Below are positions 5,431 to 37,578 of a DNA stretch of 37,934 nt, piece after piece (within the stretch, counting starts at the first letter, position 1; the number at the start of each line of letters is the position of its first letter). The notes under the pieces were generated by a model. It was not told the DNA's origin. It saw only the letters and a program-made list of their open reading frames with translations, and made no database searches. A program made the position numbers and the translations under genes. Source of the DNA: Thermoanaerobaculia bacterium (GTDB lineage: Bacteria; Acidobacteriota; Thermoanaerobaculia; UBA5066; Gp7-AA6); contig JBBQDF010000001.1 of the NCBI GenBank assembly GCA_038319475.1, positions 1 through 37,934 on the forward strand, given 5' to 3'.

Positions 5431-5901
5431 TTAGGCGGTCACGGTATGTGGCACGCCGGGTTCTACTCGGCACTCGAGGTGGGGCCCGTCGGTCCACCCC
5501 GCATCCTTCTTCCCGTCACAGTCCCAGTCCAGGCCGCTGCGTAGCCCGTGCGTCTCGGCGATTGCGATCAGCGGCTCGTAGAACTCGACGTGCGTCCCGT
5601 CGTACCCGGCTCGAGTGAAGACGCCGAGATCGACCGCGTGCGCCGCGACTTCGCCATGCCGCTCCTGCGCCTGATGCCGGCTCTTATGGTTCACCCCGTC
5701 GAGCGTCGTGACGAAGTTGCCCGGCCCGATCGGCGCGAGGGTTCGGCCGACGGCGTAGAGCGCCTGCTGTTCGCGGAGATCCCGCAGCGTGTACACGACT
5801 TTCGCGTGACGCGCGGAGTCGATCGCATCGAATTCGGCGATTAATTTCGGGATGTGGTAGCGGAGGATGGAGCAGGTGAGAGACAGGTCGCGTGATGGCA
5901 T
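5431..5901 (-). CDS. endolysin, peptidase M15 (VanY / L-Ala-D-Glu peptidase-like)
   Basis: SRHQAQERHGEVAAHAVDL matches the SxHxxGxAxD-type zinc site, and the distal PHLE supplies a further His. At 156 aa, its size and its position next to membrane and lipoprotein genes fit an endolysin. Confidence 0.7.
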   Translation of the reverse strand: MPSRDLSLTCSILRYHIPKLIAEFDAIDSARHAKVVYTLRDLREQQALYAVGRTLAPIGPGNFVTTLDGVNHKSRHQAQERHGEVAAHAVDLGVFTRAGYDGTHVEFYEPLIAIAETHGLRSGLDWDCDGKKDAGWTDGPHLECRVEPGVPHTVTA

Positions 5902-20856: not shown

Positions 20857-21519
20857 TTAACGGTGTGCCGAACTGAACGGAATGCGCCGTCCCGCCTTGT
20901 ATTGAGCCCTGTTCACGTGTCTCCGCAGGAACCGATTCGCCTGCTTCTCGTACTGGCCCGACAGCCGATCGCCGAGAGAATTCGAGCCGCGCGAATACGC
21001 GCAAGCCGCCGCCGTGAAAGTCGCCAGCACGTTCAACGCGCCGCCGATTAAGATCGGATCGGTCCCGGTCGTGAAGATCGCCAGCCTGGACTCGTACTCG
21101 AGCCGGATGTCCGTCGCGACCGTCGCCGCCTGAATGTTGATCCGGTTCTGATACCAGCCCCACGTCCCGCGCGTGCTCATGGGCGTTACGTCGGACAGCG
21201 GGACTTCTTCGGCCTCGTCCATTTCGACGAACTGGTCCGTCGTGCCCGTCGCCCGCTCCTCGAGCCCGTACGGCAGGATGAAGTCAGCCGGCAGCGCGGG
21301 CGTCGAGGAGCCGTCCAAGAAGAGAACGCTCGCGCCGACGTTGGACAGCACGACGCTCGAACGGTTCACCCCGGCCTGGTTTGTCGAGAGCCGCTCCTGA
21401 AGCTCCAGATACGCCTCGTTGGCAAGCGGCAGCATGGCCGTCGCGTCCCACACCGCGCCCTCGCGGTCCCCGACCTTCGCTTTCGCTAGCGCGACGAGAT
21501 CCGAATAGAGGTCGGCCAG
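20857..21519 (-). CDS. adaptor/tail-tubular-A-like structural protein (220 aa), apparent CTG start
   Basis: The track ORF starts at GTG 21453 (VWDAT...). The same frame is open upstream to TAG CGG CTG and encodes LADLYSDLVALAKAKVGDREGAVWDATAMLPLANEAYLEL, an N-terminal pattern I associate with phage adaptor/tail proteins. It contains no ATG/GTG/TTG. Confidence 0.5.
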   Translation of the reverse strand: MADLYSDLVALAKAKVGDREGAVWDATAMLPLANEAYLELQERLSTNQAGVNRSSVVLSNVGASVLFLDGSSTPALPADFILPYGLEERATGTTDQFVEMDEAEEVPLSDVTPMSTRGTWGWYQNRINIQAATVATDIRLEYESRLAIFTTGTDPILIGGALNVLATFTAAACAYSRGSNSLGDRLSGQYEKQANRFLRRHVNRAQYKAGRRIPFSSAHR

Positions 21520-29740: not shown

Positions 29741-32068
29741 CTACTGCACCGGAGGTGCGGTTTGATCGTCGCCCGGAGCGCCACCGGGCGTCTCGGGCGG
29801 AACGGCCGTAGCCTGCTGAGCCTGCAAGATCGTCGCGCACTCATCCAGTCGCATCCGCAGCGCCATCCACACGTCGGGCCGCGTCTGCCGCGTCTCCTGC
29901 CCCGCGTCCGACGCCGCCCACTCGCGGATCGTCGCCGCGATCACCTGCGCGTCGTCCATCATCGGATCGACTGGAGGCATCCCGGCCGGCCCTTCCTGAA
30001 TCGCGCGCGAGATCACCCGAAGCTCCGACTCCCGCTCCGACGCGCCGGGAATCTCGATCTCGTCGGCCATCCCGGAGTACTTGAAAAACGTCTCCGCGTT
30101 GGACGGCCGCGCGAAAAGCGCAGCGAATGCGGGGTTGGCCGACGCGGCCTCGACCGCCTGCCGCCGCTTCTCGAACGTCACCGGATACGCCTCCGTCACG
30201 TCCGGGTAGGCGCGAATGTTGCCCTTCAATTCGTCCAAGCGGATGAGCTTGGAATCGAGAGTCCCGGCCGGGCCCATCACGGCGATCTTCACGTCCGCGG
30301 GCCGGTTCTCCTTGAAGCACTCGACCGCCATCCCGTCGATGTCCGCGAGGAATCCAACCATCGTGCGCCACAGCAGCCCGATCCGGCCGAGCCCCTGATC
30401 CCGCTGATCCGCGATCCCCGCGGCCGTGTCGTTGCCGCCCGTGTCGCCGCCGAAGATCGCCGGAAACGCCCCGACGAGAAACTGCCCGATCTCCGACCGC
30501 AGCTCTCGCAAATATTCCGGAATGAACTGGGAGAGCGTCGCCGGCTGCGTCTGGAAGAAGTCGCCCGGCAGGCTCCCACCCTCCGACGGCATCGCCCCGA
30601 ACACGAGCCCAGGGATCGACCCTGCCTCGCGGAATGCGGCGATGTCCAGCGTGTCCGAATTGACGAACAGCGCCGGGATCCCGTACTCCGCCGTCTCGTA
30701 GAGGATATTCGAGAGCGCGTTGTACTGCTTCTGCACCGGGATCAGCGACGAGCCGACGGCCTCGCGGTTCTGGCCCTCGCCAGGGAAGGCGTGAACCACC
30801 TTCCACCGCTTGTCCATTTCGTCCTCTTCCGCCTCGCAGTACGTGTCGCCGCAGAACGTGACCTTGACGCCCTTCGGGAATCGCCGCAGCAGTTCCGCAC
30901 GGATCGTCTCGTCCTTCACCGCATAGAACGCCCACGGCCGGAACCACGTGCGCCGCAGCGGCAGAAGCACCTGCCCGAGCTTCCCGCCCGCTCGAGCCGG
31001 GCCCGTGCCGGATTCCAAAAGCGCGATGTTCGTGCTCTTCTCGTACGCCTGCGCCGAGGCCGCCTCGCCCCCGCCGCTGCCCGAGTCGCCCGACTTGTCA
31101 ATCCGCTTCTCGATCCACGGATAGGTCGCGATAACCCGCGCCTTGTGGAAGTAGCCCGAGTAGGTCAGAAACGGGTACTGATCCTGCTCCTGCGCGTAGG
31201 TCGGCAGCACGAGGTTCAGAAACGAGACGAGCTCCAACATTTCCTGTCCACGTGGCGTGCGGTCGATCATCTGCTGCCCGGTCGTGGGATCCATCGCGGG
31301 AGCCGTGAACGTGACCGGCTCGCCCTCGCGCATCGTGGATGGGTCCAGCGGCGTCCCACACTCCGGGCACGTCGGCTGCGTCTGGCCCGGATCGGGCGCA
31401 GGCACGGGACCGCTCACCCCACAGTCGGTGCACGTCGCGACCGGATCGCCGGGCTTCGTCTGGAGCTCCGTCCGGGGCGTCTCGTCCACCCCGTACTTCT
31501 GCTCGTCCGCGACGTAGCGCACAAAGCCCGCGCAGCCGCCGTCGTTGAACAGATAAAACATGATGTCCTGAAGGAGCTTGGGAATCGGGTTGTTGCGCCG
31601 GAAGAGTTGCGCCACGTCCGTCGCCGCCTTCGAGGTCGCCACGTCCGAATGGTTCTCAGGATCCGCCGGCATCCACTTCGTGCGCGGATTGCCCTCCGTC
31701 AAAACCGAGATCAGCGTGAGCCCGAACGCCTGATAGAGGTTCGTCACGTGCTGATACCGCGGCATCATGTCGAGTTCTTTGTCGGTGAGCTTGTCCTGGC
31801 CGGGGATCTTGAACTGCCCTGTACGCTCGTCGAAAAAGTAGTAGTGGAGCCCCTTCCACATTTCGCGGGCCTCGCGGATCTTCCTCAGATCGTCGCGGCG
31901 CGCGACGGAGACCTCAGCCTCGAAGTCGTAGACGAGTTTCCGCAGCGCCGTAACGCCTTCGGCCCACTCCTTCTCGAGATCGGGATTTTTCCCCGGCGAT
32001 GGCGTCCCCGGCGAGGTGCCCGCAAGATCGACGGGCTCGGGAGGTTGAGGCTGATAGGCGCTGGACAG
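29741..32068 (-). CDS. portal protein (putative), apparent CTG start adding 69 N-terminal residues
   Basis: The large ORF lies downstream of the terminase, and size and position fit a portal. The track start is ATG 31861, but the frame stays open for 69 more codons (LSSAYQPQPPEPV...EKEWAEGVTALRKLVYDFEAEVSVARRDDLRKIREARE), with G/C predominating at third positions, up to AGGGGGATAG-CTG at 32068. Confidence 0.6.
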   Translation of the reverse strand: MSSAYQPQPPEPVDLAGTSPGTPSPGKNPDLEKEWAEGVTALRKLVYDFEAEVSVARRDDLRKIREAREMWKGLHYYFFDERTGQFKIPGQDKLTDKELDMMPRYQHVTNLYQAFGLTLISVLTEGNPRTKWMPADPENHSDVATSKAATDVAQLFRRNNPIPKLLQDIMFYLFNDGGCAGFVRYVADEQKYGVDETPRTELQTKPGDPVATCTDCGVSGPVPAPDPGQTQPTCPECGTPLDPSTMREGEPVTFTAPAMDPTTGQQMIDRTPRGQEMLELVSFLNLVLPTYAQEQDQYPFLTYSGYFHKARVIATYPWIEKRIDKSGDSGSGGGEAASAQAYEKSTNIALLESGTGPARAGGKLGQVLLPLRRTWFRPWAFYAVKDETIRAELLRRFPKGVKVTFCGDTYCEAEEDEMDKRWKVVHAFPGEGQNREAVGSSLIPVQKQYNALSNILYETAEYGIPALFVNSDTLDIAAFREAGSIPGLVFGAMPSEGGSLPGDFFQTQPATLSQFIPEYLRELRSEIGQFLVGAFPAIFGGDTGGNDTAAGIADQRDQGLGRIGLLWRTMVGFLADIDGMAVECFKENRPADVKIAVMGPAGTLDSKLIRLDELKGNIRAYPDVTEAYPVTFEKRRQAVEAASANPAFAALFARPSNAETFFKYSGMADEIEIPGASERESELRVISRAIQEGPAGMPPVDPMMDDAQVIAATIREWAASDAGQETRQTRPDVWMALRMRLDECATILQAQQATAVPPETPGGAPGDDQTAPPVQ

Positions 32069-32078
32069 CTATCCCCCT
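32066..32078 (-). promoter_or_regulatory. translation-initiation motif AGGGGGATAG-CTG (copy 2)
   Basis: Identical 13-mer to 4600-4612. Here the TAG is the stop of the 32069..32473 gene. Confidence 0.5.
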
Positions 32079-32473
32079 GCCGAAGGACGCGCCGCCGCGG
32101 CGGGATCCGTCATTCCGGGCACCGGATCGCTCCAGTCGCCACCGGCCGCCGTCTCCGCGTCCGATTTCGCCTGGAGGCGCTGCACGAGCTCGTCGCCGCG
32201 GATCGGCCGGAACCCGCGAGGCTTCGACGCGCCCGTCGGAAACGCGATGTTGTGGCCGGATGGCGATTTCTGCGAGAGGTACATCCCCTCCCACTTGTCC
32301 GCACGGGCCCGCTCCGCGTTGACGAGCGAAACCCACCGCGTGCGCTCGAAGGCGACATCCTTCTCGAGCTTCGTCACGAGCGCCGCGAGCGTCTCGAACG
32401 CGAGCCGCGACACCCACGGCCAGAAAATCCGCTTCGGTCGCGCGACGACGGGAGCCGGAGTCGGCTCGCTCAT
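32069..32473 (-). CDS. hypothetical protein (134 aa)
   Basis: ORF-track ORF with an ATGA overlap at 32473/32470. Confidence 0.55.
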   Translation of the reverse strand: MSEPTPAPVVARPKRIFWPWVSRLAFETLAALVTKLEKDVAFERTRWVSLVNAERARADKWEGMYLSQKSPSGHNIAFPTGASKPRGFRPIRGDELVQRLQAKSDAETAAGGDWSDPVPGMTDPAAAARPSAGG

Positions 32474-32727
32474 TCGAACGTCGTCTTGTCGTCCGCGTTG
32501 ACCCCGCCAGGACGCCGCGGGTTTTGATCGTTGCCGTCCATGTCCACCGCAGTCCCCGGCCCGCCCTTCTTCGGCTTCGCGAGCGGGATCTTCGCGTGCT
32601 TGCGGGCCGACGCGGAAGACGTGGGTCGGGCCGTCTTCATCATCGCGACCGCTTTCGCCTCGGAGATGCCCTCCGGCCGCTGCGACATCTGCTTGACGTG
32701 CGCCTTGAAGCGAGCGCCTTTGTTCAC
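32470..32727 (-). CDS. small basic protein (85 aa)
   Basis: GTG 32727 is preceded by AAAGGAGGCG. Confidence 0.5.
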   Translation of the reverse strand: MNKGARFKAHVKQMSQRPEGISEAKAVAMMKTARPTSSASARKHAKIPLAKPKKGGPGTAVDMDGNDQNPRRPGGVNADDKTTFE

Positions 32728-32782
32728 CGGACGCCTCCTTTCGAGAGATCGGAGGCGCGTGGGCCGACGGCGTTATGCCACG

Positions 32783-33187
32783 TCAGCCAACCTCCGGAAC
32801 GATGTGCGGCGCGGCTTTCGGGCCGCGGAATTCGATCACCTTACCGATCTCCTCGCGCTCTTCCCGACGCAGGCCCTCCAGATACGGGCCCATCTGCTCC
32901 GGCGTCAGCTTCGCGAGCTCGTCGAGCTGCCCCGGCGTCGCATTGGGTCGGTACTTCAAGAACTGCTCGGCCTTGTACGCGAGATCCTTCGAACGCAGCC
33001 GCTCGCGCAGGCCCGTCGCCGTGTCCAGGAAGAGCGCCACCTGCCGCGGAGGGGCCGGACCGACGAGATAGGCGAAAACCGCCCCGATCAACGTGCCGAA
33101 CGCGACCTCGGGAACCTCGCTCCCGGAACAGATCACCTCGACGACATCGGATTCGGCGTCCGACGGGGGCGCAGGCGCGTCTACCAC
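32783..33187 (-). CDS. hypothetical protein (~134 aa) with one hydrophobic segment
   Basis: Only the C-terminal part of the 380-aa track ORF looks coding. GTG 33187 (or 33193) follows AAGGAGA and overlaps the upstream stop. Confidence 0.45.
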   Translation of the reverse strand: MVDAPAPPSDAESDVVEVICSGSEVPEVAFGTLIGAVFAYLVGPAPPRQVALFLDTATGLRERLRSKDLAYKAEQFLKYRPNATPGQLDELAKLTPEQMGPYLEGLRREEREEIGKVIEFRGPKAAPHIVPEVG

Positions 33188-33663
33188 GTCCACTCTCCTT
33201 GCAAAAGTGTCGCGTGGATGATAGCAGCAACCCGCTTCGAGAAAAAGTCTGCCGCTTTCTCGTCCCCCTTCGCGATCTCTGCCTTTACCCGGCCCGCGTA
33301 CGCTGCGATATTCTTCTCCAGCACCGCACGGCTCATCTTCGACACGTGATGCACGTCGCCCCACGGATCGAGCACCGCGTACTCGGCCACGTTCTCGGCA
33401 TCGTCCATTTCGGCCGACTCGAGCCGCCGCGAAGTCCACCGCATCCCGCCGCCCTTGGGCCCGTTGATCTCGATGAGCCCGGCGTAGACCGCATTCAACA
33501 CGGGCTCGGGCAGGTCGCGGACCTCGTGATCGGTCGCCTTCGGACGCACGCAGCCGCGGAACCACGGCTGCCCCTCGGCCGGCAGTTTCGGCGCGACGAG
33601 ATCGTCGAGCGCCTCCTGGCCGCCCTTCGTGATGTCGGCCAGCTTGCCGCGGCGGCGCGTCAA
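33181..33663 (-). CDS. hypothetical protein (160 aa)
   Basis: ORF-track ORF. TTG start forms a TTGA overlap with the upstream stop. Confidence 0.5.
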   Translation of the reverse strand: MTRRRGKLADITKGGQEALDDLVAPKLPAEGQPWFRGCVRPKATDHEVRDLPEPVLNAVYAGLIEINGPKGGGMRWTSRRLESAEMDDAENVAEYAVLDPWGDVHHVSKMSRAVLEKNIAAYAGRVKAEIAKGDEKAADFFSKRVAAIIHATLLQGEWTW

Positions 33664-34016
33664 AAGAGATCACGCGCCGGGCCGAACATGAACGACAAAG
33701 CAATTGCCAGAAACGCGCCCATGCAGAGAGAGAGCAGGACGAGCCACAGCCAGCCGCTTCCGAGGAACGCGAGCAGGATCCGCATCGCGCGAGGCTGTGG
33801 GTAGTCTGTCGGCTCCCACGGCTTGCGGTCGGAGTACGGCGAGAACTCGAAATCGAGCGTGTAGAACGTATCCTCGCGCCCGTAGAGCGTCGGCAGCAGC
33901 TTCGCGACCTCCGCGATTCGATCACCGAGCAGCATGCTGCGCTCCGCCTGGGTGAGCGCCGGGACGGCCCACAGGTGCCGGTCGAGCCACGCGGAGAGAC
34001 GCCAGGGGAGCCTCAC
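33660..34016 (-). CDS. membrane protein (C-terminal TM pair)
   Basis: ORF-track ORF. Hydrophobic segment: MRILLAFLGSGWLWLVLLSLCMGAFLAIALSFMF. Confidence 0.45.
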   Translation of the reverse strand: MRLPWRLSAWLDRHLWAVPALTQAERSMLLGDRIAEVAKLLPTLYGREDTFYTLDFEFSPYSDRKPWEPTDYPQPRAMRILLAFLGSGWLWLVLLSLCMGAFLAIALSFMFGPARDLF

Positions 34017-34021
34017 GGGAC

Positions 34022-35533
34022 TCAGAACCGCCTCGGCTTGGGCCGGAACGGCGCGTTGCTCGACTGGATATTCCCCTGCATCCTCACCCGCATTGCCAAC
34101 ACATTCGGATTCGCCGGCAACACGAACGACACTGTACCAGTCCCCTCGTCGATCACCTTGTCGCTCACCGCCTCCTTCATCCGCTCCTCCGCCGGCTTGT
34201 GCGCCTCCAACAGCGCCGTCATCAGCCCGTACCGCGCCATGTCCAGCGGGTCGTCCCCGTCAAACTTCAACAAATCTTCCGGATGATCCGGGTCGTGCAC
34301 CGCGGCCGGAATGATCTCCAGCAGATCCTTGCAGCCCGAACCGATCACGAACCGCCCGTTTAATATCAGGTCGTACATCGCCCGCCACCCGTTCACCCGA
34401 TCCGTCACCGCCGGGGTCGGAGCCGGGAACCCGTACGGCCGCAGCTCCTTGGTCAGCCGCTGCGCGATCGTGTTGCCGTCGCCTTCCGTCGCGAACGCGT
34501 CCGGGGAAAGGTAGAACCGCCGGAACGACGAGCCTTTCTGCCCCGCGATCGCCGCCTGCGTCCGCACCATCCGGGCCAGGGCGGCCACGTCGTGATGCCG
34601 CACCGAGACGCTGTGAGTCAGGAAGTAGTGCGTCGCATCCGACGCGAAGAACCCGAAAGACGCCGGGTGTTCGAAACCCCAGTCCATCGCAATCCAGCGC
34701 CGATGCCACGGCTGGAGTCCCATCGCGTCCGGGTCCGACACGCCCGTCTCCGGGTCGAAGCAGTCGAAGTACTGCCCCTCCATCGCGTCCCAGTCACCCA
34801 TGCGCCACGCTCGGAATAGCTTGGGCCCGCCTACCGCCGCGAGCCGGGATTCGTAGCCGGGATCGTTGAGGTGCAAGAGCGCGTTGTCGTCGAGGCTCGC
34901 CGGGATGAAGCACTGCGTGTGGAACAGGTCCGGCCGCTCCTCGATCGGCACGACGCGGATGATTCGCCACGGGCCGGGATCGACGTACCGCTTCTTGACC
35001 CAGACGTGGCCGGGCCCGCCGGGGTTGCCCGAGGAGATCCGCCGGCAGGGGACGCCGTAACGCGATCGGACCGATCCCCACATGAAGTCAAACGGCTTAG
35101 GATCCTCGAAGTTGCCGAGCTCGTCGAAGTAGACGCGGGTGTACGCGCGGCCCTGGTGTTTGCGAGCGTCTTCGATCGTTTCGAGCGAACGGAATCGCAG
35201 AGTCGCTCCACGAGCCAGAGTCCACCGTCGCTTCTGCACCTCGAAGGTGCCGCCCAGTAGCGGGTAGATCTCGGCCGCACGGGATTCCACTTCTTCCAAC
35301 TCGTCGAGGTTGCGCCGGAAGAGCACTCCGCGGGCGTGCCGGCCGTACTCTGTCCCGTGGATCGCGAACTCTCCGAGCTCGAGGTCGGTCTTGCCGCCGC
35401 CGCGAGCGCCGCCGTAGAAGAGATCCTGAGCAGGACACTCCACCGCGGCCGACTGGGGCCCAGGCTGCGGACACCATGCGACGACACGGGTCGCGTCGGC
35501 ATCAGTTGGCCTCGTGCTCGTCGTCGTCCCCAT
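34022..35533 (-). CDS. terL: terminase large subunit
   Basis: Walker A YGGARGGGKT, Walker B RVYFDELG, and a C-terminal nuclease-like region. ATG 35533 is preceded by GGTGAGGA (the track start GTG 35545 lies 4 codons upstream). Confidence 0.85.
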   Translation of the reverse strand: MGTTTSTRPTDADATRVVAWCPQPGPQSAAVECPAQDLFYGGARGGGKTDLELGEFAIHGTEYGRHARGVLFRRNLDELEEVESRAAEIYPLLGGTFEVQKRRWTLARGATLRFRSLETIEDARKHQGRAYTRVYFDELGNFEDPKPFDFMWGSVRSRYGVPCRRISSGNPGGPGHVWVKKRYVDPGPWRIIRVVPIEERPDLFHTQCFIPASLDDNALLHLNDPGYESRLAAVGGPKLFRAWRMGDWDAMEGQYFDCFDPETGVSDPDAMGLQPWHRRWIAMDWGFEHPASFGFFASDATHYFLTHSVSVRHHDVAALARMVRTQAAIAGQKGSSFRRFYLSPDAFATEGDGNTIAQRLTKELRPYGFPAPTPAVTDRVNGWRAMYDLILNGRFVIGSGCKDLLEIIPAAVHDPDHPEDLLKFDGDDPLDMARYGLMTALLEAHKPAEERMKEAVSDKVIDEGTGTVSFVLPANPNVLAMRVRMQGNIQSSNAPFRPKPRRF

Positions 35534-35876
35534 CGAGGTCCTCACCGCCCGTGTAGCGCCGATTCCACTCGTCCGGCGTCAGCTGGCCCGGAGACACCAC
35601 GACCGCGTTGCGATGGTCGTCGATCTGGAGCGCCTGTGGAGCCTGCCCGAACCGGCGGTTGTTGTACTCCTTGGCCGCCGTCACGTCGCCGGCACAGCCG
35701 AGCTCGTAGAGCTTGAGCAGGATCTTCGTGTCGTCGATCAAACCCCTCGCGTCGAGCTCGTCGAATATCTGCCGCAACTTACGGGCCCGAAGGCCGGGAG
35801 AGCCAGGAGGCCGGCCGAGCCGGTCCGAACGGTCCTGTTTGGGCTTGGGCGCGTCTCCGGCCGGATCGTCGCTCAC
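35502..35876 (-). CDS. terminase small subunit-like protein
   Basis: Lies immediately upstream of and overlapping terL. The helical KLRQIFDELDARGLIDDTKILLKLYELG segment is present. Start placed at GTG 35876, just after the tRNA-like element. The 209-aa track version (TTG 36131) would read through that element and is Arg/Ser/Pro-rich. Confidence 0.5.
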   Translation of the reverse strand: MSDDPAGDAPKPKQDRSDRLGRPPGSPGLRARKLRQIFDELDARGLIDDTKILLKLYELGCAGDVTAAKEYNNRRFGQAPQALQIDDHRNAVVVSPGQLTPDEWNRRYTGGEDLDGDDDEHEAN

Positions 35877-35895
35877 CGGGCCGCCTGGGGTGGAA

Positions 35896-35967
35896 TGGTG
35901 GCGGGGGCGGGATTTGAACCCGCTCCTCCGGGCAGATGAAGCCTGGATCGCTCCGAAGCGCCCCGCG
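35896..35967 (-). tRNA. initiator-tRNA-like element (anticodon CAU), non-canonical D arm
   Basis: Minus-strand RNA: CGCGGGG-CGCUUCGGAGCG-AU-CCAGGC-UUCAUCU-GCCCGG-AGGA-GCGGG-UUCAAAU-CCCGC-CCCCGCC-A-CCA. It has a perfect T arm, a 6-bp acceptor stem with an unpaired 1:72, and an encoded CCA. The D arm is replaced by a 4-bp/tetraloop hairpin, the anticodon stem has an A-C mismatch, and position 37 is C. Confidence 0.45.
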
Positions 35968-36238
35968 TCTGACGATCGCCGTCGGGCCCGCGAGGTGTCC
36001 AAGCTCCCGCCCGGCCACGAGAGCGTCCGCAGCCCATCGCAGCCGGGTGAGTGGTCAGCCCGCGAAAGGGGCCGACGGAGGGGTGTCTCATCCGGTCCGA
36101 CCAGTCTGAGGCGAGGAGTTTCCGCCGTCAAGACCTTTTAGGGGCGAACGAATTGCGCGCTAGGCTACAACGGGATCGACGGTTGCGGCCAGTGCTCCGA
36201 TGAGGCTCGGGCTTCGTGTGGAAACGAAGTACCCAAAA

Positions 36239-36278
36239 GCGGATCAGAATCGAACCGACGGCCGCCGCTCACATCCGC
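36239..36278 (-). other. T-arm-like hairpin followed by a T4 run (degenerate tRNA fragment or weak terminator after the MTase gene)
   Basis: Minus strand: GCGGAU-...GUCGG-UUCGAUU-CUGAU/AUCCGC-UUUU. It has a GGUUCGAUU T-loop consensus and a 6-bp outer stem. Confidence 0.25.
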
Positions 36279-36330
36279 CTCGATAGGAGCTAGGCACGGT
36301 TCGCCCGCCGCGGCTCCGACCTGATCCGTC

Positions 36331-37578
36331 CTACCGCACCGCGGTTACGTCGAACTCGAACAGGTGCTTGTTGGAGTTCCGTTTGCGAAGTGTCTCGATT
36401 CGAACGTTACGGAACCCTAACTTCTCAAGCATCTCAGCGTAAATGTTCTCGACGGGGACGACCACGCCGTAGAATGTGACGTTCCCGACGATGTAGTGAA
36501 CCACGCCTCCTGGCCTGATGACTCCCTTCACAGATTGAATGTGCGTCCAGATATCCTCGAAGTATTTGGCCACGTAAGTCGCCAAGAGGTCTCGGTTCTC
36601 GCCGTTCGTCTCTCGGATCGCTGCAAGGGAAGAACCGAGGATTCGGGGAACGAAGCTCTTGCCACTTGGTCGCCAGCCGATCAGTCGGCTTGTTGCGACG
36701 CCCCAAGTACCGCCGATGGCCGTCCAGTCGAGTTCAGCGGCTGCGCGGGCCTCATTGAGGAAGCCCAGCCAGTACATGTAGGGCCGAAGCTCTCGGATGT
36801 AGGACATCCGGTTTGGGTAAGGAGGTGAGGTAATGAGCAGGTCATATTTTCGAGAGACTAGGCCCTCAAGCTCACGAGAGTCTCCTTCGATGACCTCAGC
36901 GGCTCCGACTGGATTCGTTGCAGCACCAGCGAGGACGGTGGCAACGTCTTTTGAGAACTGATTTGGGATGTCGTGGTCGACGCCGAACATTGGTTGCTGT
37001 GCTGACCTTCCATCTTTGAACGACATCGACTGATGATTGAACGCGGCGTTCGAACTTGTGATGATGGTTCGGCAGAACGCAATCCGCAGCAGATCGCCTA
37101 CGGGCGTTCTGAGTCGAGTTGTTGCTTCGAGCGACGTCCTCAGTCGGCAAAGCTGAGTCAGAGTGTCCGAGGGCCACCAACGCTGGATGTTGGCCAAGGG
37201 TGGTGGGGCGCCCGGCTCTTCTTTCTCGTCACTGCAGCGCTGAACGATCTCCCGAGCGAGCGCCGCAGCGCCAGAGAGGACCTCATCGCAATACTGAGCT
37301 AGCTTTGCACGACCGAACCAGACGAGGAACGGATTGATCTCGATAGATGTCGCGGCACGGCCGAGATTGGCGGCGCACAAAGTTGTCGTCCCAGTTCCTG
37401 AGAAAGGATCCAAGACGACAAGCCCCGAAGCGCCGGAGTTCAGGATCTCCTGAACGATTTTTACTGAATACGCCGGGGTAAGCCGCAGCCAGCCGTGTCG
37501 CCCCGCGGATCGGTTGTACTTGAAGGTCAACTCTGCCCGCTGCCCGACCCGTTCCCGTTCGTCCTGAGTGAGGCTCAC
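36331..37578 (-). CDS. DNA methyltransferase (N4-cytosine or N6-adenine; SPPY motif IV, FxGxG motif I N-terminal)
   Basis: VLDPFSGTGTT (AdoMet motif I), then ~190 aa, then LLITSPPYPN (catalytic motif IV). No cognate nuclease gene is nearby. The gene is visibly less GC-rich than the rest of the window. The GTG start overlaps the TAG of a leader mini-ORF. Confidence 0.8.
   Translation of the reverse strand: MSLTQDERERVGQRAELTFKYNRSAGRHGWLRLTPAYSVKIVQEILNSGASGLVVLDPFSGTGTTTLCAANLGRAATSIEINPFLVWFGRAKLAQYCDEVLSGAAALAREIVQRCSDEKEEPGAPPPLANIQRWWPSDTLTQLCRLRTSLEATTRLRTPVGDLLRIAFCRTIITSSNAAFNHQSMSFKDGRSAQQPMFGVDHDIPNQFSKDVATVLAGAATNPVGAAEVIEGDSRELEGLVSRKYDLLITSPPYPNRMSYIRELRPYMYWLGFLNEARAAAELDWTAIGGTWGVATSRLIGWRPSGKSFVPRILGSSLAAIRETNGENRDLLATYVAKYFEDIWTHIQSVKGVIRPGGVVHYIVGNVTFYGVVVPVENIYAEMLEKLGFRNVRIETLRKRNSNKHLFEFDVTAVR

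Follow-up and report, generated by a model that had tools for sequence, protein, structure and literature searches.

Immediately upstream of the terminase genes of an uncultured soil phage lies a 72-nt gene for an initiator-tRNA-like RNA, located on the minus strand at positions 35967–35896 of the 37,934-nt stretch of DNA that was analysed in this study (hereafter the window). Based on its sequence, its detection by ARAGORN, its minimum-free-energy fold, covariation in three homologues and a covariance model built from the element itself, we conclude that it is very probably a genuine, selected and structured RNA derived from an initiator tRNA. It combines the acceptor end and the CAU anticodon of an initiator with a drastically reduced D arm.

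RNA positions (p) are converted to window coordinates on the minus strand as 35968-p. The acceptor stem is formed by CGCGGGG (35967–35961) and CCCCGC (35906–35901) and is counted as 7 bp including the unpaired C1×C72, after which the discriminator A73 and the CCA end (35899–35896) are encoded. The miniaturised D arm, CGCU-UCGG-AGCG (35949–35960), follows directly after G7 as a hairpin of 4 bp and a 4-nt loop, lacking both positions 8–9 and G18G19. A single linker A leads to the anticodon arm, UCCAGGC/GCCCGGA, whose 7 bp include one A·C mismatch and which closes the 7-nt loop UUCAUCU, with the anticodon CAU at 35938–35936 and C at the equivalent of position 37 (35935); a 3-nt variable region (GGA) and a T arm with a 5-bp stem (GCGGG-UUCAAAU-CCCGC) complete the molecule. 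This cloverleaf is the minimum-free-energy fold of the element; it has four arms, with 7 bp in the acceptor stem, 5 bp in the T stem and 7 nt in the anticodon loop. The unpaired 1:72, the CAU anticodon, the reduced D arm, the A·C mismatch and C37 had all been described in the initial annotation, and all are present on the minus strand; its description of the initiator-type features was likewise correct on the sequence. Of the nucleotides that build the canonical elbow (U8, G18G19 and T54-Psi55-C56), the C56 equivalent alone is invariant in the three copies known, and no kissing complementarity between the D and T loops was seen by eye.

Homologous 72-nt elements are found upstream of the small terminase gene (terS) in two related phages, L013 and L014, whose large terminases (TerL) are 69% and 61% identical to that of the window, giving three independent element sequences in addition to one identical contig (L054). 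Across the three homologues, 95.5% of the cells of the 22-pair structure are paired, as against 36–48% in slid-partner controls, and compensatory changes occur at 7 of the 22 pairs; the observed pairing and covariation values were reached by none of 500 shuffles, while RNAalifold recovered the same cloverleaf de novo. The window and L014 elements are identical at 41 of 72 positions, below the 67% of the TerL DNA, with the fold intact. Twelve differences separate the window element from that of L013, four of them at third codon positions, and the substitutions are not codon-like. As judged from this alignment, the cloverleaf is maintained by compensatory evolution, and a chance or decay origin is excluded in favour of a real, conserved RNA gene; the decay reading is rejected because compensatory substitutions maintain the structure across three diverged phages.

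Standard tRNA models recognise the element poorly. ARAGORN, one of the checks proposed initially, calls the window copy as tRNA-Met(cat) and does not call those of L013 and L014, and its mitochondrial modes (-mt, -mtmam; ARWEN mode) found none of the three. The lack of a covariance-model hit had been named at the outset as evidence against the gene, and Infernal searches with RF00005 and RF00023 indeed gave zero matches, a result that is superseded by the covariation evidence: RF00005 had no match in the window at its gathering threshold (29 bits) or at E≤10, and none on L013 and L014 at E≤0.1, while neither ARAGORN nor Rfam detected a tmRNA (RF00023, tRNA-Ala-like domain with tag ORF). Within the clan, the window element scored best with tRNA-Sec, at 19.7 bits against a gathering threshold of 47, and the matches to other Rfam families (F6, tRNA-Sec, mascRNA) were regarded as sub-threshold noise. 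The covariance model built from the element scores the window copy at 94.5 bits; its next-best matches are the 77-nt initiator tRNAs of hosts (41–46 bits, in 110 of the 150 related genomes), and a search of 150 related and 150 phylum-sampled genomes returned ordinary 77-nt initiator tRNAs only, with no second copy. Pattern searches were equally unproductive: the exact 19-nt sequence CGCGGGGCGCTTCGGAGCG had two matches in IMG/VR, both within unrelated coding sequence; degenerate patterns had no match in IMG/VR, one match in the JGI metagenomes, attributed to chance, and four chance matches in GTDB genomes, none of which reached 18 bits with the element's own model; and none of the 33 matches of a looser pattern in IMG/VR was genuine. 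A second ARAGORN call in the window, tRNA-Arg(cct) at 36235–36317, has a poor 83-nt fold and no Rfam support and was dismissed as a false positive or terminator-like hairpin. Annotation pipelines relying on the Rfam tRNA model are likely to overlook the element.

Bacterial MetRS, Met-tRNA formyltransferase and the 30S P site with IF3 read the CAU anticodon, A73, the 1:72 mismatch, the pairs G2:C71, C3:G70 and G4:C69, and the 29:41 and 30:40 pairs. In the three-copy alignment, CAUC (C30 A31 T32 C33, alignment numbering), ACCA, C1, G2, C3 and G4 are invariant, and the stem around CAUC covaries while CAUC itself stays fixed, including C at position 37 in every copy (35935–35938 in the window). 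ACCA (35896–35899) is retained despite differing downstream sequence. The pairs 2:71 to 4:69 and A73 are kept throughout, as is the 1:72 mismatch, which is C1×C72 in the window and C1×A72 in L013 and L014. Pairs 29:41, 30:40 and 31:39 are G:C, G:C and C:G in the window and L013 and G:C, G·U and G:C in L014, so that the first two are G:Y in all copies and the third is inverted in two of them. The D stem (C:G, G:C, C:G, U:A) is invariant, with no A11:U24, whereas its 4-nt loop (UCGG, ACAG and CGGC in the homologues) and the T loop (UUCAAAU in the window, UGCAAUG in L013, GUCGGCA in L014) drift, and the T54-Psi55 consensus is missing from the latter two. All three copies carry the acceptor determinants and CAU of an initiator without A37 or A11:U24. 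On this comparison, the constant nucleotides of the element are those read by MetRS, the formyltransferase and the P site with IF3, while the D and T loops, which would form the elbow, vary between copies.

With bacterial initiator tRNA-fMet (E. coli metZWV/metY and the copy in the genome bin), the element shares an identical acceptor stem (CGCGGGG/CCCCGC), the unpaired 1:72, A73-CCA, CAU, G29:C41 and G30:C40. The initiator tRNA of the bin (C21:12482–12558) matches the window element in its acceptor stem and T loop, the UUCAAAU loop being shared with tRNA-fMet by the window copy only, and the bin's own tRNAs are canonical. In contrast to tRNA-fMet, the element is 72 rather than 77 nt long, has no U8/N9 linker and no A11:U24, carries a 4-nt D loop without G18G19, a 7-bp anticodon stem (with A·C in two copies, those of the window and L013) and a 3-nt variable region, and has C37 instead of A37, U32 instead of C32 (window and L013), C31:G39 in two copies and non-canonical T loops in L013 and L014; it is also unscored by RF00005.

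The element lies on the coding strand at the head of the terminase genes. The small terminase gene (35502–35876, minus strand), assigned by protein alignment and by homologues that carry PF18932 (DUF5681-type in relatives), starts with GTG at 35876, where an independent gene caller, run on the identical contig L054, also placed the start, and the initial statement that it lies 19 nt from ACCA holds; the corresponding distances in the two relatives are 12 and 6 nt, and no Shine-Dalgarno sequence precedes terS in L013 and L014. The large terminase gene (PF03237, phrog_2/979) follows at 34022–35533 (minus strand). Upstream of the element is a non-coding leader of approximately 160 nt (35968–36131, minus strand), defined by alignment with L013, which shows conserved blocks, no coding signature and possible shared hairpins (in these two sequences only). 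It contains a promoter-like TTGACG (36131–36126), a 17-nt spacer and CAGACT (36108–36103), conserved in L013, behind which the element lies in both phages; a consensus promoter scan of the leader found nothing, and it is the conservation of this box that would suggest promoter function. The initial placement "inside the late operon" is more precisely described as a position in the leader that heads the terS-terL operon, downstream of the conserved TTGAC-N17-CAGACT. A DNA methyltransferase gene further upstream (36331–37578, minus strand; PF01555, phrog_18146) is missing at that position in L013 and L014.

It is quite possible, if somewhat short of probable, that the element works as an initiator tRNA, structurally minimised and excised from the late-operon leader, which is processed, charged and used in initiation. 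Under this proposal, the RNA would be transcribed together with terS and terL at the very front of their late transcript, cut at its 5' end by RNase P and trimmed at its 3' end to the encoded CCA, its excision leaving a terS mRNA with a very short and largely Shine-Dalgarno-less leader. The excised RNA would then be charged with methionine and formylated, and would serve as a phage-supplied initiator tRNA in late gene expression. The absence of a canonical elbow could be tolerable for an initiator in particular, plausibly because initiators bind the P site directly, with no need of EF-Tu or A-site accommodation, and the 7-bp anticodon stem and shortened connectors may restore the geometry in the manner of reduced mitochondrial tRNAs. 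C37, invariant in all copies, may change which start sites are preferred or shield the anticodon loop from nucleases of the host. The deviations at U8, G18G19, purine 37 and A11:U24, and at T54-Psi55 in L013 and L014, mean, on the other hand, that the RNA may be rejected by MetRS, formyltransferase, RNase P or IF2 of bacteria, and the close coupling to the terS start suits a cis-acting role equally well. The small number of sequences (three), the poor recognition of the copies by RF00005 and ARAGORN, the A·C mismatch of the window and L013 and the inverted third G:C pair of two copies likewise speak against the proposal.

A more specific form of the proposal, which we consider unlikely, holds that the element is a phage-private initiator whose C37 pairs with G at position -1 of the mRNA, the loop CAUC reading G-NUG. 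With no greater likelihood, such reading would favour phage start sites and rescue otherwise very weak CTG starts. In E. coli, tRNA-fMet uses position 37 to pair with position -1 of the mRNA, giving a quadruplet start (Hollerer and Jeschek 2023, PMC10018350), and the A37C variant proved too toxic for study there (PMC10018350). The element resembles those position-37 mutants in its C37; they are laboratory point mutants of a full-size tRNA, whereas C37 of the element is natural and invariant in a miniaturised phage RNA known from sequence. G precedes every reported CTG start of the phage and 19 of the 28 starts in a manual list for the window (about two thirds), compared to roughly 27–35% G and 42–50% C at -1 in genome-bin genes; stop-start junctions (TAG|NTG and TGATG) confound this signal, and the samples are small and related. 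Objective, crude rules combined with a Shine-Dalgarno filter gave 62–75% G (n=12–13, p 0.005–0.07 versus the bin), and the enrichment was not significant without that filter. Among called starts, G at -1 was found in 15 of 29 for L013 and 6 of 7 for L014, and in 22 of 63 for relatives lacking the C37 element. A link between C37 and G(-1) start codons is speculative.

A less probable reading, though one that deserves serious consideration, is that the tRNA-derived element acts in cis on the terS-terL mRNA, its acceptor/T minihelix and CCA forming a signal for RNase P or 3'-end processing, stability or translation control, and that it is never aminoacylated or used in decoding. We attach the same limited likelihood to the corollary that the late packaging mRNA is thereby cut from upstream transcription, giving a terS message with a short leader. 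The constant proximity to the terS start (6–19 nt) and the absence of a Shine-Dalgarno sequence in L013 and L014 are consistent with a cis role, as are the orientation of the element, which is that of the operon, its placement in a conserved leader, the drift of the D and T loops as though elbow contacts were dispensable, and the failure of standard tRNA models on the copies. However, recognition by RNase P leaves unexplained the invariant CAU-C, the 7-bp anticodon stem with its G:C pairs at 29–30 and the 1:72 mismatch, all of them conserved amid stem pairs that covary, and phages with similar terminases (L015, L044–L048) manage without any such element. Like mascRNA/MALAT1, mitochondrial tRNA punctuation and the tRNA-like structures of plant viruses, the element is a tRNA-shaped module in a longer transcript that is probably cut by RNase P, and a weak Rfam mascRNA-type alignment (17.2 bits, E 1.4) covers the acceptor and T arms only. 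These signals differ from the element in having no conserved initiator-type anticodon identity set, its scores lie far below the gathering thresholds, and we know of no such processing signal from phage late operons. Docking of the element in cis on its own terS start codon was considered and rejected on geometry, as the 6-nt spacer of L014 would be too short to span the peptidyl-transferase centre and the P-site codon.

It is improbable that the RNA has no role in translation and instead mimics an initiator tRNA as a decoy or sponge for a host factor, such as a VapC/PIN-type tRNA-fMet nuclease, MetRS, the formyltransferase or IF3. Conservation confined to protein-recognition features would fit such a role, C37 and U32 resemble changes by which phage tRNAs have been proposed to escape anticodon nucleases (PMC10264068), and at least six PIN-domain proteins are encoded in the genome bin. 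Targeting of tRNA-fMet by these proteins would, however, be conjectural, the phage may have a host other than the bin, and a decoy would require a high copy number; moreover, a functional initiator tRNA that resists nucleases would fit the idea just as well.

The remaining readings fare considerably worse. That the element is a functionless remnant, either a tRNA-fMet pseudogene in decay or an attP/attL core that stems from a tRNA, an option offered in the initial annotation, is highly improbable and was not borne out: the absence of an RF00005 score, the mismatches and the truncated D arm would agree with decay, but the seven compensatory pairs across three phages do not, and a complete 5' half is present rather than a 3' half alone. 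Exact identity of only the 3' half to a host tRNA, which had been suggested as a mark of an att core, was sought in the bin, which is 76% complete, and was not found there; an elongator tRNA-Met came closest, with 23 of 26 nt matching. Neither tyrosine nor serine recombinases (PF00589, PF00239) were found on contig C1, which is possibly incomplete, and the L013 and L014 copies occupy the same site by terS and not by an integrase. Least credible of all is that the stretch codes for an N-terminal extension of terS with an incidental cloverleaf: the terS frame is indeed open across the element in all three phages and one gene caller began L013 terS at a GTG within the T stem (thus illustrating that gene callers can extend terS into the element), but the GC3 coding signature is missing upstream of approximately 35780, differences from L013 fall at third positions in only four of 12 cases with paired changes being compensatory, an in-frame TGA lies directly 5' of the element in L013 and L014 with no Shine-Dalgarno-preceded start, and, by our estimate, a stop-free run of 24 codons has a probability of about 60% at such a GC content.

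The distribution of tRNA genes among terminase relatives bears on the origin of the element. A more distant relative, L049 (TerL 43%), carries a canonical 76-nt tRNA-Met(CAU) at L049:2757–2832 with an A1×C72 mismatch, A11:U24, A37 and a full D arm (58.9 bits in the RF00005 search that missed the L013 and L014 copies), and L009 has a tRNA-Met upstream of TerL. The L049 gene is like the element in its CAU anticodon, its 1:72 mismatch and its position immediately beside terS/terL in a related phage; it differs in its normal cloverleaf, A37 and full D arm and in lying between terS and terL instead of upstream of terS. The element probably descends from a canonical tRNA-Met of the L049 type, and in lambdoid and P22-like phages tRNA genes reportedly head the late operon. 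No element was found in terminase relatives L002–L008, L010, L015, L044–L048 and L050–L053; in L088 and L089 the terS is a different one.

Many phages carry tRNA genes, including known ones of initiator type; a D arm as drastically reduced as this is otherwise known mainly from animal mitochondria. Like reduced metazoan mitochondrial tRNAs such as mammalian tRNA-Ser(UCN) and tRNA-Ser(AGY), the element has a short acceptor-D connector, a tiny D loop unable to form the G18G19-Psi55C56 elbow, an extended anticodon stem and a small variable region. The mitochondrial mode of ARAGORN misses the element, and the likeness is one of architecture only. The element is GC-rich and encodes its CCA; organelles have co-evolved synthetases, EF-Tu and ribosomes, whereas the element belongs to a phage of a bacterium with canonical tRNAs. 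Reduced-arm tRNAs are functional in mitochondria (PMC4394434, PMC4013460), and our literature searches found no tRNA from a bacterial system that lacks the canonical D arm and elbow and is yet selected for its shape.

Should the proposed initiator tRNA be charged and used, the bacterial initiation pathway (MetRS, formyltransferase, IF2/IF3 and the P site) would be seen to tolerate a mitochondria-like minimal tRNA, and the element would represent a natural test case for the true requirements of an initiator as well as a natural A37C initiator with which to examine 37:-1 quadruplet pairing and non-AUG (CUG) initiation. Should it instead be a processing or regulatory module, it would represent a tRNA gene exapted into an mRNA leader element that controls the packaging genes of the phage.

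The element occupies positions 35967-35896 of the minus strand and reads, segment by segment from its 5' end, CGCGGGG, CGCU-UCGG-AGCG, A, UCCAGGC, UUCAUCU, GCCCGGA, GGA, GCGGG, UUCAAAU, CCCGC, CCCCGCC and ACCA. As proposed in the initial annotation, it displays a 7-bp acceptor stem with C1 facing an unpaired C72 and an encoded A73-CCA, a D arm consisting of a 4-bp hairpin with a 4-nt loop and lacking the 8-9 linker, an anticodon stem of up to seven pairs if one A.C is counted, a 7-nt loop with C directly after CAU, a 3-nt variable region and a canonical-looking T arm. This cloverleaf is the minimum-free-energy fold of the window copy, and ARAGORN called a tRNA-Met(cat) at the element, in an acceptor register that is slightly shifted and less favourable. 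The suggested covariance-model search gave no match at Rfam gathering thresholds, and at E ≤ 10 only a tRNA-Sec alignment (19.7 bits) and a mascRNA alignment (17.2 bits) were returned. The element departs from canonical tRNAs in its RF00005 score, U8, G18G19 and the purine at position 37.

The window spans one entire contig of 37.9 kb, one of 618 in a genome bin, and represents a divergent tailed-phage genome whose host is assigned by binning alone. The minus strand carries nearly all of its genes, including those for the large terminase (TerL; 34022-35533, minus) and a DNA methyltransferase (36331-37578, minus), and a DNA polymerase/exonuclease-like protein is also encoded. A gap of approximately 450 nt devoid of coding signature extends from the methyltransferase stop to the small terminase (terS) start, and the element lies at its 3' end on the minus strand, the terS GTG (35876) being located 19 nt downstream as previously stated. 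A separately assembled 4.66-kb contig (L054, Logan run SRR19962011) matches window positions 31493-36151 at 100% identity, and there an independent gene caller also placed the terS start at GTG 35876; the window phage is present in at least this public run. A second ARAGORN call, an 83-nt 'tRNA-Arg(cct)' at 36235-36317 (minus), has a poor fold and no Rfam support; its T-loop-like GGTTCGATTC, enclosed by a GCGGAU...AUCCGC stem with UUUU behind it, would better suit a terminator of the methyltransferase gene or a fragment from a tRNA 3' end.

Close relatives of the window TerL are few, and the genomic contexts of the three closest were compared. A 47-kb Logan contig (L013; TerL identity 69%) and a JGI soil contig (L014; 61%) each carry a 72-nt homologue (5544-5615 and 164-235, respectively) on the strand of the genes, immediately before a DUF5681-type small terminase. 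The third (L015; 53%) lacks the element and holds in its place an array of GAGTGGTTCC repeats, with at least six direct and inverted copies upstream of terS (positions 40-200), which could be terminase-binding (pac-like) repeats. The three element copies align without gaps, and across them 95.5% of the cells of the 22-pair cloverleaf are paired, as against 36-48% after the 3' partners were shifted by 1-3 columns. Both partners changed in seven pairs, of which the acceptor and T stems hold two each and the anticodon stem three, none of 500 shuffles matched the observed pairing values, and RNAalifold returned the same cloverleaf without being supplied with a structure, this covariation analysis being founded on only three independent sequences. 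The window and L014 elements share just 41 of 72 bases, a lower identity than that of their TerL DNA (67%), and the fold is nonetheless intact; together with the covariation, this indicates that neither decay nor chance could have yielded the element, which is conserved and under structural selection. In all three phages, the base just before the element (position -1) is A.

Invariant in all three copies are C1, G2, C3, G4 and G7 with their partners, A73-CCA, the D stem CGCU/AGCG, the anticodon-loop tetranucleotide CAUC, G29:C41, the 'GAGC' at the junction of variable region and T stem, and the C56 equivalent; G30 pairs with C or U, and position 72 is always unpaired, being C in the window copy and A in those of the relatives. 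The D loop (UCGG, ACAG, CGGC) and the T loop (UUCAAAU, UGCAAUG, GUCGGCA) vary. In E. coli, methionyl-tRNA synthetase reads CAU, A73, 2:71 and 3:70, formyltransferase reads the 1:72 mismatch and 2:71 to 4:69, and IF3 and 16S rRNA in the P site read the anticodon-stem G:C pairs. The conserved set is the one read by synthetase, formyltransferase and IF3/16S rRNA, and the elbow-making parts vary freely. A covariance model trained on the three copies found as its next-best matches ordinary 77-nt initiator tRNAs in 110 of 150 related genomes (41-46 bits; E-values rough) and nothing else. The bin's own initiator tRNA (contig C21, 12482-12558) also shares its acceptor stem and T loop with the window copy. 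These comparisons identify the element as a descendant of a bacterial initiator tRNA.

The distance from the element's ACCA to the terS start is 19 nt in the window (GTG), 12 nt in L013 (TTG) and 6 nt in L014 (ATG), and no Shine-Dalgarno sequence precedes terS in L013 or L014. A TTGAC(G/T)-N17-CA(G/T)(A/G)CT box is conserved approximately 160 nt before the element in the window and L013; a consensus promoter scan did not call it. The leader (window 35968-36131, minus; L013 5380-5543) is partly conserved, with blocks ACCGGATGA..CCCTCCG and GCGGGAG, and could fold into hairpins common to both phages; a weak F6-sRNA-like hairpin was noted at 36023-36078.

We tentatively favour, at slightly less than even odds, a function of the element as a processed, charged and formylated extra initiator tRNA of late infection. 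The late transcript would begin at the TTGAC-N17 box, RNase P and 3' trimming would free a 72-mer ending in the encoded CCA, excision would leave a terS mRNA with a very short leader, and the 72-mer would be charged, formylated and employed in initiation. Initiator tRNA goes straight to the P site, bypassing EF-Tu and the A site, so that loss of the elbow should cost an initiator less than any elongator. The element also resembles mitochondrial tRNA-Ser(UCN) in architecture. Reduced mitochondrial tRNAs exhibit compensations comparable to its short connectors, longer anticodon stem and 3-nt variable region (PMC4394434, PMC4013460).

The main rival, which we regard as somewhat unlikely, is that the element retains a processing or leader function alone; this would account for its coupling to terS but leaves the invariant CAUC, the 1:72 mismatch and the anticodon-stem G:C pairs unexplained. 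That it serves as a decoy for a nuclease or factor targeting initiator tRNA appears highly improbable; in its favour, the bin encodes at least six PIN proteins, and phage tRNAs with anticodon-loop changes have been proposed to evade VapC-type enzymes (PMC10264068). A coding role (the terS frame is open through the element) was rejected on the absence of a GC3 signature upstream of ~35780, on third codon positions holding just four of 12 window-L013 differences (manual reading of the alignment) and on an in-frame TGA right 5' of the element in L013 (5541-5543) and L014 (161-163), where the window has AGA. The att remnant or pseudogene raised initially is dismissed since the element covaries and still has its 5' half, the 3' half being exactly identical to no bin tRNA (best 23/26 nt, elongator tRNA-Met) and no tyrosine or serine recombinase being found on the contig; neither ARAGORN nor Rfam supports a tmRNA or other Rfam family.

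In E. coli, tRNA-fMet pairs through its position 37 with position -1 of the mRNA, and the A37C variant was too toxic for study (Hollerer and Jeschek, PMC10018350). An initiator with C directly after its CAU anticodon (C37) should prefer G at -1, and could stabilise G-CUG through G:C pairs flanking the C.U36 mismatch. G precedes all four putative CTG starts inspected in the window, namely those of the portal (32068) and a holin-like gene (4602), both after AGGGGGATAG, and those at 21519 (after TAGCGG) and 22979. For the portal-like gene of L013, too, a CTG (11676) is the probable start; it overlaps the upstream TGA (CTGA), has G at -1 and lies 61 codons upstream of the called TTG. The -1 statistics rest on imperfect start calls, partly manual in the window, where a junction-by-junction list of likely starts gave G in 19 of 28, compared to 27% G and 50% C at high-confidence starts of other bin contigs; C, the commonest -1 base there, is nearly missing from window starts. 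Objective crude rules gave 62-75% G with a Shine-Dalgarno filter (n = 12-13; p 0.005-0.07 versus the bin) and 44-50% without it (not significant), and database gene calls gave 15/29 in L013, 6/7 in L014 and 22/63 in relatives without the C37 element. The G(-1) signal in the window is real but small, with mixed results from other rules and contigs, and it is confounded by TAG stop-start abutment (TAG/ATG, TAG/CTG) in the window and by TGATG overlaps in L013. TAG abuts the next start at many window junctions (for example 32071/32068, 24536/24533, 20423/20420, 12819/12816, 4605/4602 and 1154/1151), which is unusual at 66% GC, where TGA is expected to dominate. Owing to this small, partly manual and confounded signal, the notion that a phage-private C37 initiator favours G(-1) starts, which we consider improbable, is kept separate from the main claim.

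No further copy of the element was found in 300 genomes belonging to the same order or phylum or among the other terminase and terS relatives searched. Sequence patterns of several stringencies, scanned against IMG/VR, the JGI metagenome collection and one genome per GTDB species, produced chance matches only. L013 has a second, weak tRNA-like match (19 bits) between early genes (564-652), with a GCACGG/CCGUGC closing stem and the T-loop-like motif GGUUCGACUCC. In a more distant relative (L049; TerL 43%), a canonical 76-nt tRNA-Met(CAU) of initiator type (2757-2832; RF00005 58.9 bits, A1xC72 mismatch, A11:U24) is situated between terS and terL, ending 4 nt before the called TerL start, and another (L009) carries tRNA-Thr and tRNA-Met upstream of TerL. 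A limited literature search brought up no account of a phage or bacterial tRNA with reduced arms. The simplest history would be that this phage group has long had a tRNA gene of initiator type next to its packaging genes, and that this gene was miniaturised in the lineage leading to the window phage.
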